A stretch of 64,000 nt of DNA from Octopus vulgaris. Lineage: Eukaryota. The notes under the pieces are model-generated. The model worked only from the letters and a program-made list of their open reading frames with translations, did not search any database and was not told the origin of the DNA. Made by a program: the position numbers and the translations under genes. Where the stretch lies: the NCBI GenBank assembly GCA_951406725.2, contig OX597822.1, positions 94,488,001 to 94,552,000 on the forward strand, written 5' to 3'. The stretch's first letter is position 1, and every line of letters starts with the position of its first letter. This document shows, piece after piece, positions 7,807 through 60,523 of this stretch.

Positions 7807-8145
7807 TGAAAGAATGGAGTTGAACGACTAGTTAACAAATATCCTTTATTCTCGACATATGTTTCGAAGGCTGCATATTCCTAATTCCAAAGGAATATGG
7901 ATTAGGAATATGCAGCCTTCGAAACATATGTCGAGAATAAAGGATATTTGTTAACCAGTCGTTCAATTCCATTCTTTCATATACTTATAATTTTAAAATA
8001 AACGTACAAATTTCCGCACGAAGACACGTAGTCTATGCCCTAGAGACGTAGCTTCAACCGTGTTCTTTCTGATGTGAATTTGCTACCTAGGTATCGGTTA
8101 TCTTTCGAATTATCCTTAATAAGATAATTCATTCAACTACTCAAA
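7807..8145 (+). mobile_element. Non-coding fold-back element in (TA)n carrying the 3' half of a hammerhead (Penelope/retrozyme-like)
   Basis: 79-bp inverted arms 7807-7885 / 7901-7979 (2 mismatches). GAAAC-AUAU-GUC^ at 7921-7932 followed by AATAAA. (TA)n on both sides. Confidence 0.7.
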
Positions 8146-8195
8146 TATATATATACATATATATATATATATATATATATATATATATATATATA

Positions 8196-8700
8196 CTAGC
8201 AGTATCGCCCGGCGTTGCTCGGGTTTGTAAGAGAAATAACTATATAAGCATTTTTAGAGAGTTACTTCCCTTATAGATGCCAATTCGGGCTTTCTTAGCC
8301 ATTTCTGTTTTGGTGTCTTCAAGCCATGAAGTCGTTGTTCTAAAAGAACGCTGGTCTCCTTGACAACACTTTACAACGTTGATTTCCTTACACTCCTTTC
8401 CCCACAGCTTCACGAGGGAGGGAAGAAGAGGGAGAAGCAAACAGGTGCAGGTGTGACCATGGACGCCAACTCCGCCACCATCGGCACACGAAAAATTATG
8501 CATTAAAATGGAATAAAAAATTATGTTAAATTATTTTTAAAATCGTAGACTCATCGTAGATGCACGCTAATACTCAGATGGGCTTGATATGAATCACGAC
8601 TATAAGATACCCAAATTTGGTTAAACTGCACCGCAAAATGTGGGAGTAGTTAGGAATCTAAATCGAAGGGGACAGACACTCACACAACTACAGTTTTAAT
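8196..8700 (-). mobile_element. Non-autonomous Helitron-like element in (TA)n
   Basis: Minus-strand 3' end is hairpin CCCG-AGCAACGC-CGGG, then a short spacer, then CTAG, the Helitron 3' signature. Confidence 0.65.
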
Positions 8701-10298
8701 ATATATATATATATATATATATATATATATATATATATATATATGTATGTATGTATGTATATATATATATATATATGTATGTATGTATGTATGTATGTAT
8801 ATATGTATGTATGTATGTATATATATATATATATATTGTTGTAGTTCATTTGCCGCATTGCAGAATAGAAAATGGTGATTTAGAAAGCCATGACAATGCA
8901 GTTAGTAAAAATATTTTTCTGTTTTAAAAAAATCAGAAAAACGTAAAAATTTTACCAGAAATACTAATATTTTTTTTTCTCAACTGCATTGCTGTGGCTT
9001 TTGAATTCAATGTCTATGCACACACACACACACACACAAACACACACATATATATGTGTATACATATATATATGTGTATATCTATATATCTATCTTATAA
9101 TATATATTATAAATAATATATATATATATATATATATATATATATATATATATATATATATATATATATATATATATATATATATATATATATATATATA
9201 TATATATATATATATATATATATATATATATATATATGATCATTGTCCTTATCATCACCATCATTATCATATACATATAAATATATCTATATATCAGGAA
9301 TAGCTGACCTTTCACACACATTATATTGTAAACAAAATTATTTTCATATTTGCTTTGAAACAATAATGTTTCCAAGTTAATTCATGTTCCAAGGCCTACA
9401 CAATCAGATCTTCTGAATAAAGTAATGATTTTTTTTTCTAAATCTTTTTTTCACTTATTTCAGCCATTGGACTGCGACCATGCTGCAGCTCTGACATGAA
9501 GGATTTAGTTGAACAAATTGATCCCAGTGCTTATATTCTTTTTTTAAGTTTGGTACTTATTCTATCCATTTCTTTCTGCCAAACTGCTAAGTCATGGGGG
9601 ACGTAAACAAACCAATATTGGTTGTCGCTGGTGGTCAAATGGGACACAAACACAAAACCACTCACAGACACAAGCACGGACACACACACATGCATGCACA
9701 CACTTGCACACACACACAAGCACTGACACACACACGAATGCACACACTTGCACACACACACACACAAACACACACCCACACACATTTATCTATCTATCTG
9801 TCTACCTGAAAGCATGATACATGCCACTAGGTAGCATATATATATTGTTTCAGCTTTTGGCTTATATGTATGTATGTGCTTGTTTGTGTGTATACTGGCT
9901 TCAACCAATAACTTTTTCAAAAGTTAACAGATAACTGCGTGGCATCTTGGGCAAGTGTCTTCTGCTATAGCCCCGGGCCGACCAATGCCTTGTGAGTGGA
10001 TTTGGTAGATGGAAACTGAAAGAAGCCTGTCGTATATATGTATATATGTATATATATATGTATGTGTTTGTGTGATTGTGTGTCTGTGTTTGTCCCCCTA
10101 GCATTACTTGACAACCGATGCTGGTGTGTTTACATCCCCGTCACTTAGCGGTTCGGCAAAAATAGAGTAAGTACTGGGCTTACAAAGAATAAGTCCTGGG
10201 GTCGAGTTGCTCGATCAAAGGCGGTGCTCCAGCATGGCCGCAGTCAAATGACTGAAACAAGTAAAAGAGTAAAAGAGTAAAAGAGTAATATATCAGAA

Positions 10299-11170
10299 AT
10301 GATTTTTCCATCAATTAACAGAACAGTCAATCAAGATCAGGCTGTTCAATACCCTGTTGAATATCGGAACATGCTTAAACCCACTGGGATGCCACTGCAT
10401 AACTTGACACTAAAGCTAGATGCTCCCATTATGTTGCTTAGGAATCTTGACCCACCTTGCCTGAGTAACGGAACTCACTTAATTGTTACTTCCATGAAGC
10501 CCCGTGTCCTACAGGCAACAATCATAACAGATAGTCACAAAGAAGAAAATGTCTTTATTCCAAAATTTCCGCTCATAACTATAGATACTCTCTTTACTCT
10601 TTTACTCTTTTATTTGTTTCAGTAATTTGACTGCGGCCATGCTGGAGCACTGCCTTTAATCGAGCAAATCGACCCCAGGACTTATTCTTTTGCAAGCCCA
10701 GTACTTATTCTATCGGTCTCTTTTGCCGAACTGCTAAGTAATGGGGACATAAACACACCAGCATCGGTTGTCAAGCAATGCTAGGGGGACAAACACAGAC
10801 ACACACATGCATATATATATATATACATATATACGACGGGCTTCTTTCAGTTTCCATCTATCAAATCCACTCACAAGGCTTTGGTCGGCCCGAAGCTATA
10901 GCAGAAGACACTTGCCCAAGGTGCCACGCAGTGGGACTGAACCCAGAACCATGTGGTTGGTAAACAAGCTACTTACCACACAGCCAGATGTTCCATTTGA
11001 ATTTAAGATGCTTCAGTTTCCAGTCAAACTATGTTTTGGTATTTCAATTAACAAATCCCAGGGTCAATCCTTCTAGGTAGTTGGACTGATCTCTTTACTG
11101 CATGCTTCTCCTGTGGTCAACTCTATGCTGGTTGCTCACAAGTTGGAAGCAGCAACAATTTATTCATTTG
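10299..11170 (+). pseudogene. Helitron RepHel Pif1-helicase C-terminal remnant split by a SINE
   Basis: YPVEY.N.L.P.GMP.HNL.LK...PIMLLRNLDPP.L.NGT.L.V ... FIP..PLI | PFEFK.LQFPVKLCF.ISINKSQGQS, then frameshifted GQLY.GCS. SINE at 10587-10985. Confidence 0.9.
10587..10985 (-). mobile_element. SINE family A copy inside the Helitron helicase remnant
   Basis: Flanked by agat (10583-86 / 10986-89). Confidence 0.9.
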
Positions 11171-11229
11171 GACACCATGTATATATATGGGGGTGGGTAA
11201 AGTATCTCATTCTTATGGAATTCTGCATT

Positions 11230-59123: not shown

Positions 59124-59874
59124 TATATAGAAAAGAAAAATAAGTTGGCTAGCAGCGAGCTGTTTCGCCTCATACCGAAGGAATTAGAAATGGCAGTCAA
59201 AGACCGTTTTTTCCATTTCTATAAGTGGAGATTCCAAAAACGAAGGCCCTTGCGGCTCACATACACAAAACCGGAGTGGCAAATATACGGATTCAGTCAC
59301 TTACCGTTAATAGCGAACACGGTGTTTCTGGATCACAAACATATAAAAAAAGGGGAGTTTGAATTCCTTCTTCAGCGCTATATTCGTTAGCTTTATCAAA
59401 TGCCACCAGCCCTCACTTCTGACCCAGCAACATCAGATAGTGGGGGGAAGTGCGCAGATGCTAAAACCAAGTAACGACTGGGAACGTAAATTTTCCCTCC
59501 AAAATTCTGCCATGCGCGCCTTCTGGGTAATCGTAATGGAATGAGGAATCCACATGGTAATACAATAAAAATGGTAAATAATTTTCCTGTGGTTTTTCAT
59601 GTAACCAACAATTATTTACCGGTAAATTTCGGTATGTAAATACGACAAAATAATTGTCAAGACCTTTGTAAGGTTCAGTATATAGTAAAGAAAAATAAGT
59701 TGGCTAGCAGCGAGCTGTTTCGCCTCATACCGAAGGAATTAGAAATGGCAGTCAAAGACCGTTTTTTCCATTTCTATAAGTGGAGATTCCAAAAACGAAG
59801 GCCCTTGCGGCTCACATACACAAAACCGGAGTGGCAAATATACGGATTCAGTCACTTACCGTTAATAGCGAACA
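59124..59874 (-). mobile_element. Retrozyme-like element, 555-bp unit plus 196-bp partial second unit
   Basis: 59124-59319 repeated at 59679-59874 (1 mismatch seen). HHR at 59310-59381. No credible ORF. Microsatellite flank. Confidence 0.8.
59310..59381 (-). ncRNA. Type-I hammerhead ribozyme with extended stem II
   Basis: Minus strand: AUAGCG-CUGAAGA-A-GGA..CAAAC...GUUUG..UCC-A-GAAACA-CCG-UGUU^CGCUAU. 6-bp stem I. Confidence 0.75.
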
Positions 59875-59879
59875 TATAG

Positions 59880-60088
59880 ATGTGACCGCGTGTGTACTGT
59901 TGGCGATTTTTTTCCTCTGTCTTCCCTTCTCTGGATCTTTCCTTTTCCTATGTTTCCGACGAAGAGCTCTGCTCGAAACATTAAACCCTCCTTCTTCCCT
60001 TCCTTCCTGAGCATCCAATAATACTATATTTGTTCCATGTCCTCGCATTGTTGTGTTTTCTCTTTGTGTTTTCATGTTTGGATTAACT
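59880..60088 (+). mobile_element. ~210-bp hammerhead-bearing repeat (copy 2)
   Basis: High identity to 53172-53381 in opposite orientation. Followed by (TA)n. Confidence 0.75.
59952..59986 (+). ncRNA. Minimal hammerhead motif (CCGACGA variant)
   Basis: GUUU-CCGACGA-A-GAGC-UCU-GCUC-GAAAC-AUU^AAAC. The sister copy at 53274-53308 keeps the GAAACGUU palindrome. Confidence 0.6.
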
Positions 60089-60128
60089 ATATATATATAT
60101 ATATATATATATATATATATATATATAT

Positions 60129-60523
60129 GGTTATCAGTAACAATAAAGGGTGAAATTAATTAATTTGGAATAATTATTAATTACACCAAGTAGATTTCGG
60201 CATGTAAAAGCCTCATTCGAGGAAAATTTAAGTAATACTAAGCAATTAAGGGTTTAGCAACGAATTGCCTCACCACACACCGAATTTAGAAATAGCAGTC
60301 AAAGAGTTATAGCTATTCTTTCTAGTAAAAGGGAGATCTCAGTAAAAACACAGCACTTGAAAGGCAAACACAGACAGGTAAGAGAGAATGAAATGACAGC
60401 AATCTATCATACAATTTTAAGTCACCTACGGACGTACGTTTCGAAATCAAGTTTTAGGAAAGCATAAGAATTAGATAATTCTACCTTACCCAACTTCTTT
60501 TCTCATCAGCGTAGGATACTACT
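60129..60523 (-). mobile_element. Retrozyme-like element with canonical HHR
   Basis: HHR at 60425-60515. Shares collinear sequence blocks with 59124-59874. (TA)n on both sides. Confidence 0.75.
60425..60515 (-). ncRNA. Type-I hammerhead ribozyme, canonical core
   Basis: Minus strand: CCUACG-CUGAUGA-GAAA...UUUC-GAAAC-GUAC-GUC^CGUAGG. 6-bp stem I, stem II closed by GAAA/UUUC, palindromic stem III ACGUACGU, GUC cleavage triplet. Confidence 0.88.

Follow-up and report, generated by a model that had tools for sequence, protein, structure and literature searches.

Hammerhead ribozyme motifs of a genomic segment of Octopus vulgaris in retrozymes, Penelope-like element ends, and a tRNA-headed pseudo-LTR

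The type-I hammerhead motifs of a 64,000-nt stretch of the Octopus vulgaris genome (contig OX597822.1, positions 94,488,001 to 94,552,000; hereafter, the window) lie, as we consider highly probable, at the ends of Penelope-like elements (PLEs) and of non-coding derivatives, likely inserted by Penelope-type reverse transcriptase (RT)/GIY-YIG proteins. Three classes are distinguished, comprising families A, B, C, E, and H, families D and F, and family G. A first-pass annotation had counted about 13 motifs; 12 of these sites fall in 11 repeat families with hammerhead-bearing copies, and the site at 44222 does not. The bulk of the finding extends the known retrozyme class to the octopus genome; at the level of single insertions, it further provides evidence for retrozyme use of the two-site priming mechanism of PLEs.

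Families A, B, C, E, and H consist of ORF-less units with one type-I hammerhead each, which join head to tail with periods of 583 (A), 555 (B), 352 (C), 364 (H), and 219 (E) nt. The family A copy (60125..60522, minus strand) is 5'-truncated just upstream of its hammerhead (60425-60515, minus strand), which has a 60-nt stem/loop II, an 8-nt palindromic stem III, and C at position 17. Family B (59124..59874, minus strand) is a partial tandem of about 1.35 units, and its hammerhead (59310-59381, minus strand) has U at position 17. The family C copy (24403..24951, minus strand) has a 5' inverted arm at 24710-24951 and a hammerhead at 24567-24611 (minus strand) with C in place of U at core position 4. 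The family H copy (23305..23657, plus strand), also with an inverted 5' arm, is cut off inside stem II, so that of its hammerhead the 3' half is left, near 23405-23433 (plus strand; site 23415). Family E, with a minimal hammerhead, a 4-nt palindromic stem III, and U at position 17, is present twice, at 59880..60087 (plus strand), where stem III is mutated, and at 53173..53381 (minus strand), where the core is mutated. It is mostly monomeric, with tandems in none of the 19 insertions examined and one tandem locus (L234). The longest ATG ORF in a unit dimer is 38 to 70 aa (141 aa in E), and no similarity of the units to three PLE proteins was found by tblastn.

Outer 3' ends lay at (TA)n in 40/41 (A), 20/23 (B), 25/39 (C), 19/23 (H), and 17/19 (E) cases, versus 7% at random places, among loci taken as best-scoring matches, a selection that favours long and tandem copies. 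The five families are spread over many contigs with fixed 3' ends. Insertions with 3' sequence at both ends numbered 15 of 26 in A, 6 of 17 in B, 17 of 22 in C, and 10 of 13 in H, mostly with one short and one long end. Two fixed 3' ends combined with 5' inversions, as seen in these four families, are typical of PLEs, for which the both-ends-3' "tail" signature has been described (PMC8557442, section 6; PMC11167929). The tails of the alternative 3' end measured 45 to 55 nt in C and H and 100 to 120 nt in A and B. This anatomy suggests that a PLE protein would nick both strands at (TA)n and prime cDNA at two internal sites, located 105 to 311 nt downstream of the cleavage site; the cDNA template, a circle or an uncut multimer, would run across that site. 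The annotation had pictured ORF-less elements with partial tandem and inverted ends, mobilized by Penelope proteins into (TA)n. The tandem periods, the inverted insertions, and the (TA)n enrichment bear out this anatomy in the ORF-less families, whereas sites 7921, 52884, and 36578 are not ORF-less; the mobilization claim is likewise supported for several ORF-less families, which the intact (TA)n-ending PLEs could move, and not for those three sites or for 44222.

We regard A, B, C, E, and H, by their sequence features, as additional members of the known non-LTR retrozyme class, which is already published (PMC7229834; bioRxiv 10.64898/2026.07.22.740005). The metazoan non-LTR retrozymes of Cervera and de la Pena (2020; PMC7229834), known among molluscs from a mussel, are likewise short and dispersed, lack ORFs, occur as tandem units that each contain a single type-I hammerhead, and have a GC content of 35 to 45%. 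The A and B units differ in being longer than the 170- to 400-nt RNAs of that report and in their long stem/loop II. Moreover, (TA)n targeting and two-ended PLE insertions are documented here, unlike in the consulted parts of that report, and the octopus units are described from genomic DNA. The same model, in which retrozymes are kin to the pseudo-LTRs of PLEs and depend on PLE proteins for their movement, was put forward by Li, Clavereau, and Pollet (2026; bioRxiv 10.64898/2026.07.22.740005) for units of 51 to 972 bp. The sample described there comprises 31 vertebrates, 3 insects, and a coral, with no mollusc, and its evidence is co-occurrence and phylogeny, whereas ours is insertion anatomy.

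Candidate enzymes are encoded in the genome, which holds intact PLE ORFs of a Hydra type (778 aa) and a Neptune type (781 aa), and intact PLEs ending at (TA)n are present that could move the ORF-less families. A specific autonomous partner for A, B, C, E, and H was not found among the PLE UTRs compared; the five had no 3' sequence in common with UTRs of the Hydra and Neptune types, and the Poseidon-type UTR, compared with E only, gave no match. In one case (L021/L031), an array of A units adjoins, at a junction, a GIY-YIG fragment of the Hydra type. Families H, A, and B are young (copies at 97 to 100% identity; 99 to 100% in H), and their presence beside an intact Hydra-type enzyme makes trans-mobilization directly testable. 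The Hydra-type element (L142) has a single 778-aa ORF with a DKT motif plus a GIY-YIG domain at its C terminus, a period of 2,863 nt, a hammerhead, and a (TA)n target; the GIY-YIG domain gave a weak Pfam match as a fragment and none in the whole protein. Under 3 kb long, it resembles in all these features, and in its CxxC and CxH motifs, the Hydra-clade PLEs described by Craig et al. (2021; PMC8557442), among which an octopus member, Hydra-1_Obim, is already catalogued. It departs from that clade in having RWL for RWK, in showing no visible CxCX5C linker, and in the 56-nt stem/loop II of its hammerhead, unlike the catalogued one (PMC8557442). We therefore call the element Hydra-type and not a proven member of the Hydra clade.

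Family G matters more than the retrozymes. Its solo copy in the window (36389..36674, plus strand; site 36578) joins a tRNA-Arg-derived head (about 36389-36457, plus strand; both A and B boxes present), an (AAT)n-type spacer, and the start of a PLE ORF, within which lies a minimal hammerhead (core at 36582, plus strand), and it stops at the short RT-start end. The head aligned end to end with the tRNA-Arg(ACG) of the genome, the sole tRNA compared, at a score of 69.5 versus 20 ± 5.5 for shuffles and with about 50 of 75 columns identical; neither the Rfam tRNA model nor ARAGORN called it a tRNA. In 22 of 29 loci picked by RT alone, the head was found downstream of the RT. The partner is a decayed Penelope/Poseidon-type element of about 2.5 kb, of which G is the pseudo-LTR, and its 3' UTR begins with the tRNA-Arg-derived sequence about 30 nt past the stop codon. 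Locus L328 is a full partial tandem of the partner with a period of 2,498 nt, and in L310 and L322 the G body runs on into the ORF. Partner translations exhibit an RT with DKG and, at the C terminus, a GIY-YIG-like domain with CCHH and no cysteine linker; the match to Pfam RVT_1 (E 2.7e-6) was below the cut-off, and the ESM Atlas neighbours were HTH_animal, RVT_1, and GIY-YIG at 0.96 to 0.97. By these motifs we assign the partner to the Penelope/Poseidon type.

Solo G copies start at the tRNA head, with 0 of 73 heads extending more than 11 nt upstream and 0 of 73 into the ORF. The insertions bear hallmarks of PLEs. Head-to-head pairs made up 35 of 65, and in 28 of these 35 a long end was paired with a short one; of 28, 17 had target duplications with at least 9 matches, versus 0.4% of 756 mismatched pairs. 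The alternative 3' end left a tail of about 35 nt. Head-to-tail tandems, which mark retrozymes, occurred in 0 of 65 insertions, and 0 of 53 long 3' ends lay in (TA)n, unlike the (TA)n setting that the annotation had given to most elements. The features are those of a tRNA-SINE, namely, 5' ends at the head, target-site duplications, and a 3' end common with an autonomous partner, and G likely spread by itself as a SINE. Its long end is a fixed unique sequence with no simple-repeat or poly(A) tail, and the partner is a PLE, not a LINE. The A and B boxes are predicted to serve as a Pol III promoter inside the element, by which each copy keeping the head could be transcribed alone and then reinserted by the PLE protein. 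SINE partners are taken to be LINEs; here, the partner would be a PLE, and the SINE would be the pseudo-LTR of that same PLE. Against this reading, the sharp 5' limit could also be the product of cDNA that annealed at near-palindromic stretches of the head.

T4 runs are not conserved anywhere in the full G unit, a hint that a coding retroelement was transcribed by Pol III. We tentatively suggest, with the balance of our judgment against it, that a Poseidon PLE took a tRNA-Arg Pol III promoter as its pseudo-LTR, lost Pol III terminators over the 2.5-kb unit, and had Pol III as its polymerase, that its uncapped RNA was made translatable by the hammerhead at the ORF start (through cleavage or circularization), and that the pseudo-LTR, when solo, turned into a SINE for which a Penelope enzyme provides mobility. 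Falling just short of an even call is the explanation that the head is a passenger, captured from a SINE when a template switch placed it in the 3' UTR of a Poseidon that Pol II transcribes; the solo copies would then reflect either a truncation hotspot or a Pol III SINE, and Pol III would not produce the coding RNA. RNAs made by Pol III are uncapped and hard to translate, which favours the passenger, as do the modest significance of the T4 deficit (P about 0.03), the six longest natural open stretches, none significant by itself (P 0.12 to 0.93), and the A-rich sense strand (38% A, 22% T). Nevertheless, throughout the family the head has a fixed place immediately upstream of the ORF start, and the column-majority letters of the unit hold 0 T4 runs in 2,508 nt versus 26 A4 runs, while the Hydra-type and Neptune-type PLEs have 25 and 9 T4 runs. 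Moreover, 34 natural open stretches of the partner, whose copies are not independent, have 21 T4 runs versus 45 to 56 expected. Were the coding G RNA made by Pol III, one element would combine a Pol III-driven autonomous retroelement with a PLE-dependent SINE, and the transcription mode of a PLE would be linked with the purpose of its hammerhead; ribozyme cleavage is reported to be able to induce cap-independent translation (PMC13725137, 2026).

In its minimal hammerhead overlapping the ORF start, its two downstream RT start sites that yield a 30- to 40-nt tail, and its AT-rich, non-microsatellite targets, the green anole Poseidon PAc (Frangieh et al. 2024; PMC11167929) is like G; the PAc pseudo-LTR, as far as described in that source, has no tRNA-derived sequence, and the G partner, unlike PAc, is decayed. 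Schistosome Sm-alpha/Sj-alpha SINE-like elements (PMC6765202, PMC2770079) similarly unite a tRNA-related Pol III promoter and a hammerhead in a short, abundant element. However, Sm-alpha occurs in tandems in which an upstream promoter transcribes the next unit, and G differs in this, in its minimal ribozyme, which lies within the ORF start of a PLE, and in being the pseudo-LTR of a coding PLE that has been identified. Small-RNA-derived sequence within a retroelement terminal repeat is also carried by Cassandra, Helenus, and Ajax (PMC10886601), but they are non-autonomous LTR elements, whereas G is a PLE pseudo-LTR common to the coding element and the solo copies. The consulted text of Li et al. 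(bioRxiv 10.64898/2026.07.22.740005) makes no mention of a tRNA-headed PLE. No such element was found in our search of the published literature. In the octopus SINE names OR1 and OR2, OR denotes tRNA-Arg. These SINEs and OK (Ohshima and Okada 1994, as cited in PMC4758252 and PMC4824008) have tRNA-derived heads like that of G, and the consulted passages of the two citing papers mention no hammerhead or PLE link. Compared by description only, G may be one of OK, OR1, and OR2 under an old name.

The hammerheads might instead be vestigial or structural, forming part of the RNA region bound by the PLE protein, with little or no cleavage in vivo, which we judge rather unlikely. In line with it, no insertion end was found at the cleavage site, a result that does not support the "ribozyme-processed" label of the annotation, and weakening variants are frequent among the 46 motif types collected from 416 loci (C at core position 4 in 13/46, U at position 17 in 15/46). 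Cleavage was dispensable in vitro for insertion by the only reconstituted PLE, with no RNA-seq ends at the site (PMC11167929). Counting against our main reading as well, the structures of lowest energy predicted for A, B, C, F, and H mispair the core and lie 2 to 5 kcal/mol below the active fold, and 8 of 9 Xenopus retrozymes failed to cleave (bioRxiv 10.64898/2026.07.22.740005). Against a vestigial role, core and pairing are preserved over the 46 motif types, whose stems are unrelated, and compensatory-looking changes were seen between subfamilies. All 19 examined E insertions are one unit long, with a 5' end starting just past the point where the 3' end lies, the outcome expected if a circle were copied for one turn. 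Stem III was also as annotated, palindromic or nearly so, with a perfect palindrome in 30 of the 46 types, a share that is not a neutral estimate because the motif-type filter demanded a palindrome or at least 3 stem III pairs. By this palindrome and by analogy with published PLE ribozymes, the hammerheads are predicted to self-cleave as dimers.

We consider it improbable that all the short families merely derive from coding PLEs, whether by 5' truncation or by local expansion as satellites, with no independent non-coding mobilization. Truncation does hold for D and F, which are 5'-truncated ends of coding Hydra-type PLEs, as assigned by protein likeness. The D stub (7807..8140, plus strand) is a 5'-truncated fold-back of a 3' UTR with the 3' half of its hammerhead at 7921 (plus strand). 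Family F (52825..53135, plus strand) is the 3' end of another such PLE, whose hammerhead (about 52884-52978, plus strand) has a 3-bp stem I, a 70-nt stem/loop II, and U at position 17. G is colinear with a coding PLE as well, and closed units were established for A, B, C, E, and H, not for the families of 24228, 53855, 56966, and 44222. However, A, B, C, E, and H join head to tail without a PLE coding remnant and are dispersed with fixed 3' ends, and these closed non-coding units rule the explanation out for the five; G copies end at the head in 73 of 73.

A chance origin in repeat-rich DNA, compatible with the descriptor match at 49537-49620 and with 44222, which lacks a normal core, has a negligible probability and is ruled out for 12 of the 13 sites, given the family-wide conservation of the motif and the 3 strict matches in the window versus a mean of 0.048 (maximum 1) in 313 block-wise dinucleotide shuffles. 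The strict type-I descriptor required at least 5 Watson-Crick pairs in stem I and at least 3 pairs in stem III, and its matches (60425-60515, 59310-59381, and 24567-24611) are three sites correctly annotated as intact or near-intact. The loosest setting gave 4 matches versus 0.49 ± 0.69 in shuffles (maximum 3), the fourth, 49537-49620, probably being chance. No hammerhead family appeared among the Rfam matches listed (150 of 293). Sites beyond the strict matches were judged via their genomic families. Among those also called intact, 52884 fits the descriptor only with a 3-bp stem I, and 36578 and 59952 are mutated copies, as is 53274, annotated as decayed; other copies of their families match the minimal hammerhead. 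The sites annotated as half-motifs, 7921 and 23415, are 5'-truncated inverted copies keeping the 3' half.

Site 44222 lies in a young repeat (44130..44320, minus strand) that ends at (TA)n, with copies 97 to 98% identical. Since none of its 12 family loci has a descriptor match or a normal core, it is not the decayed copy that had been annotated, and at best it is possibly an atypical variant, read by eye as a U3-A8 variant of the core whose stem I has 2 bp. The other three sites called decayed are indeed decayed copies of older families that retain the core and paired stems. These are an inverted copy at 24130..24340 (minus strand; site 24228, core at 24269), whose family was read by eye and had no descriptor match among its copies, a copy at 53776..54000 (minus strand; site 53855, core at 53893), and a strongly decayed one at 56935..57075 (minus strand; site 56966), which does not adjoin (TA)n and is 73 to 91% identical to its relatives.

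The window (G000:C9:94488001-94552000) lies in an animal genome of 2.8 Gb, has a GC content of 39% and holds many microsatellites. A strict type-I hammerhead descriptor returned three good motifs in it, all on the minus strand (60425-60515, 59310-59381 and 24567-24611), against an expected 0.048 and a maximum of 1 in 313 shuffles. With the loosest setting there were four matches versus 0.49 in shuffles, and the motif at 52884 meets the descriptor at a 3-bp stem I. An Rfam scan of the window yielded mostly microsatellite hairpins, with no hammerhead among the 150 of 293 matches listed. 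For every site in the first-pass annotation, the family was looked up in the genome; the candidate numbers come from a first-look search and do not represent copy numbers, and the best-scoring matches were taken as loci for study. The ORF-less hammerhead units gave 2910 candidates for family A (site 60425), 1104 for B (59310), 3114 for C (24567), 2157 for H (23415) and 4294 for E (59952 and 53274). For the remaining sites we obtained 3203 for G (36578), 892 for F (52884), 2711 for D (7921, with a related copy as the query), 801, 1481 and 99 for the decayed copies of older families at 24228, 53855 and 56966, and 1364 for 44222. A core with paired stems was present in other copies of 11 of the 12 families; together with the excess over shuffles, this refutes chance matches for 12 of the 13 sites.

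At 44222, a decayed hammerhead had been proposed, a reading that was abandoned since the normal core was absent in 12 of 12 loci of this family. As seen at 44130-44320, it is a young family ending at (TA)n, with a fixed noncanonical hammerhead-like fold and a palindromic stem III. Read by eye, it may be an instance, with a stem I of 2 bp, of the U3-A8 variant in PMC4209133. The 416 loci (1.4 Mb) contained 46 motif types, the paired stems being built into the descriptor. Stem III was perfectly palindromic in 30 of them, in agreement with the proposed palindromic or near-palindromic stem III, although a filter that called for a palindrome or at least three stem III pairs will have raised this share; core position 4 was C in 13/46 and position 17 was U in 15/46. 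Subfamilies differ by compensatory-looking stem changes, seen as examples and not as a formal pair-by-pair count; the coordinates of some parts are approximate. The flanks of the retrieved loci L016 to L393 contain over 20 other hammerhead types, each found once or twice, which suggests many more families genome-wide.

The closed units of A, B, C, H and E measure 583, 555, 352, 364 and 219 nt, respectively, and show no likeness to proteins of Penelope-like elements (PLEs). Their outer 3' ends abut (TA)n in 40/41 (A), 20/23 (B), 25/39 (C), 19/23 (H) and 17/19 (E) cases, versus 7% at random places, in support of the proposed (TA)n targets for these five families. This outer-end counting took the place of a first test, which was low for B (2/24), C (7/24) and the Hydra-type element (1/16) because the probe did not reach the end or stopped within arrays. 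Two 3' ends are preferred, lying approximately 196 and 299 to 306 nt past the cleavage site in A, 192 and 311 nt in B, 173 and 216 to 219 nt in C, and 179 and 234 nt in H. Inverted insertions, mostly with one of each 3' end, account for 15/26, 6/17, 17/22 and 10/13 in A, B, C and H. This combination of tail and inversion is typical of PLEs (PMC8557442, section 6) and has been attributed to a nick in each strand and a pair of internal reverse transcriptase (RT) start sites (PMC11167929). In none of the five families was the cleavage site an insertion end, and the template would therefore span it. Each of the 19 E insertions examined was one unit long, starting 109 to 123 nt and ending 105 to 119 nt past the cleavage site; this fits one turn around a circle, though the query favored full-length copies. 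Duplicates were dropped before counting (A, L026, L027 and L029; B, L035, L038 to L040, L047, L050 and L056; C, L068 and L072; H, L230; G, L102 and L239), as were insertions touching a locus edge and L269, the source of the RT query. The window's own A, B, C, E and H loci were left out, and its G copy (L082) was kept.

At 59124-60522, the unrelated families B, E and A adjoin, with (TA)n between E and A and microsatellites at the outer ends; this cluster is the product of repeated insertion into one tract. A and B have about 54 nt in common (76% identity) near their short 3' ends, and other short elements flanked by (TA)n carry a similar motif, as in the flanks of L019 and of the Hydra-type element L142. 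It is perhaps a protein-binding signal. Elsewhere, B arrays cluster in the first 300 kb of contig C13 (G000:C13:266911-301592), and about nine C units are arrayed on C2 (G000:C2:14086399-14089544).

In a single case (L021/L031:3807-4140; G000:C4:97758861-97759139), the 5' end of an A tandem is joined to an inverted GIY-YIG fragment of a Hydra-type PLE, a possible template switch that would point to the partner enzyme. This fragment led to a young coding PLE (10,726 first-look candidates). This Hydra-type PLE has an intact 778-aa ORF, a 2863-nt period, a long-loop hammerhead and (TA)n ends. DKT, CxxC and CxH are common to it and the Hydra clade as described in PMC8557442 (section 11), from which it differs in that RWL replaces RWK and the cysteine linker is not visible; an octopus Hydra element is already catalogued there. 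A Neptune-type PLE with an intact ORF was also found. This young element (L217:906-4587 and L218) encodes a 781-aa RT-endonuclease, preceded by an ORF of about 360 aa, and has a repeat-rich 3' UTR; the descriptor found no hammerhead 3' of its endonuclease. No sequence similarity was found between the five ORF-less families and the Hydra-type or Neptune-type UTRs compared, nor between E and the Poseidon-type UTR, so that no specific partner is named for them. The insertion anatomy of A, B, C and H makes the proposed mobilization by PLE proteins likely.

Families D (7921) and F (52884) were at first read as noncoding. D is 75 to 77% identical to the Hydra-type 3' end over about 70 nt, and its long copies continue into a second Hydra-type ORF, 59 to 67% identical over longer matches. 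Upstream of F copies, by about 1 kb and on the same strand, lies a Hydra-type endonuclease fragment in five listed loci, representing four places (L175 = L402). Both are therefore stubs of coding Hydra-type PLEs and not independent noncoding families.

Family G (36578) departs from the (TA)n-inserted, ORF-less pattern proposed for most of the motifs. In the window copy, a tRNA-like head is followed by an (AAT)n-type spacer and then a minimal hammerhead. An alignment of the head with the tRNA-Arg(ACG) genes of the genome, the only tRNA compared, runs end to end and matches at about 50 of 75 columns, scoring 69.5 versus 20 ± 5.5 (maximum, 44) in 2000 shuffles; the head retains the A and B boxes and has lost the acceptor stem, and ARAGORN made no call on the window. 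An RNase P-type role of the head was rejected on account of its unpaired acceptor stem. Approximately 19 tRNA-Arg(ACG)-like matches, many about 206 nt apart, cluster at G000:C2:211887716-211907118. Head-to-head pairs make up 35 of the 65 insertions at 58 loci, and 28 of these pairs combine a long with a short 3' end; no insertion is head to tail, and none of 53 long ends touches (TA)n. Target duplications with at least nine matches were present in 17/28, versus 0.4% of 756 controls.

A Penelope/Poseidon-type RT fragment beside one G copy served as the sole query for coding relatives (6578 first-look candidates). In 22 of 29 other RT-selected loci, the G head lies downstream of the RT on the same strand, about 30 nt past the stop codon, so a free SINE with an unknown partner was dropped as an explanation. 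Locus L328 holds a partial tandem that is complete (period, 2498 nt), in the order head, spacer, ATG, hammerhead in the first codons, RT, endonuclease, stop and next head. Among G-selected loci, 0 of 73 heads reach more than 11 nt upstream, and 41 begin at -8 to +5 of the tRNA start. Together, these data indicate that G is both the pseudo-LTR (the repeated terminal part) of a Penelope/Poseidon-type PLE and a short element amplified separately. This family is decayed: none of 77 scored candidates has an intact ORF, and the 569-aa query is itself the longest match free of stops. Run contigs from four organisms, of guessed RNA or unknown kind and with ends, strand and level invisible, cover the G ORF end, head and hammerhead.

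RNA polymerase III (Pol III) stops at T runs. The majority-letter G unit (2508 columns) has no run of at least four T, 14 of three T and 26 of at least four A, compared with 25 such T runs in the Hydra-type unit and nine in the Neptune-type ORF. Under codon-aware nulls over 729 codon columns, the deficit gave P values of 0.033 and 0.030; natural open stretches have 21 T runs versus 45 to 56 expected, with none of the six longest significant on its own, and L328 has 2 versus 6.1 expected (P = 0.05). As a sign of Pol III transcription, this deficit is suggestive only, and we regard it as conceivable, if somewhat doubtful, that the coding RNA of this PLE was transcribed by Pol III.

The anatomy, units, ends and targets of these families are established. 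A PLE protein would bind the RNA region 3' of the hammerhead, nick both target strands and prime at two sites, and copies would come out truncated, in tandem or inverted. The small noncoding units would use this machinery in trans, and head-bearing G copies would make their own RNA and act as a SINE; dimer-dependent cleavage and circles are predicted. Counting against ribozyme function, the active fold was not the predicted minimum in 5/6 motifs folded, cleavage was dispensable in vitro for an anole element (PMC11167929), and 8/9 Xenopus retrozymes did not cleave (bioRxiv 10.64898/2026.07.22.740005).

The hammerhead system is real and mostly known. Since non-LTR retrozymes (PMC7229834), PLE hammerheads (PMC4209133) and the retrozyme-PLE link (bioRxiv 10.64898/2026.07.22.740005) are published, A, B, C, H and E on the one hand and D and F on the other are further members of published classes, not new in kind. 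An octopus repeat annotation reports 190 PLE families (PMC13282606); hammerhead and ribozyme terms had no match in its supplement, its Zenodo library being outside the search. A tRNA promoter with a hammerhead has a precedent in schistosome Sm-alpha (PMC6765202, PMC2770079), which is tandem and described there without a named PLE partner, whereas G has one and is never head to tail. Among the titles and abstract starts listed by literature searches, none describes a tRNA-headed PLE or a PLE-moved SINE. The tRNA-headed Poseidon pseudo-LTR/SINE is thus a variant new to the literature searched, which took in neither Repbase and Dfam nor subscription journals, bioRxiv supplements or a 1994 paper on octopus SINEs, and earlier cataloguing is therefore possible.

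The window also holds an abundant short repeat family with, by its look, another tRNA-type head (12663-13020, 28340-28639, 44320-44647, 52440-52802 and 54246-54571), probably a SINE. Open stretches at 18611-19261 and 25240-25947 resemble what we take to be C-terminal fragments of LINE reverse transcriptase. At 27358-27478, a long inverted repeat flanks an (ATG)n/(CAT)n tract.
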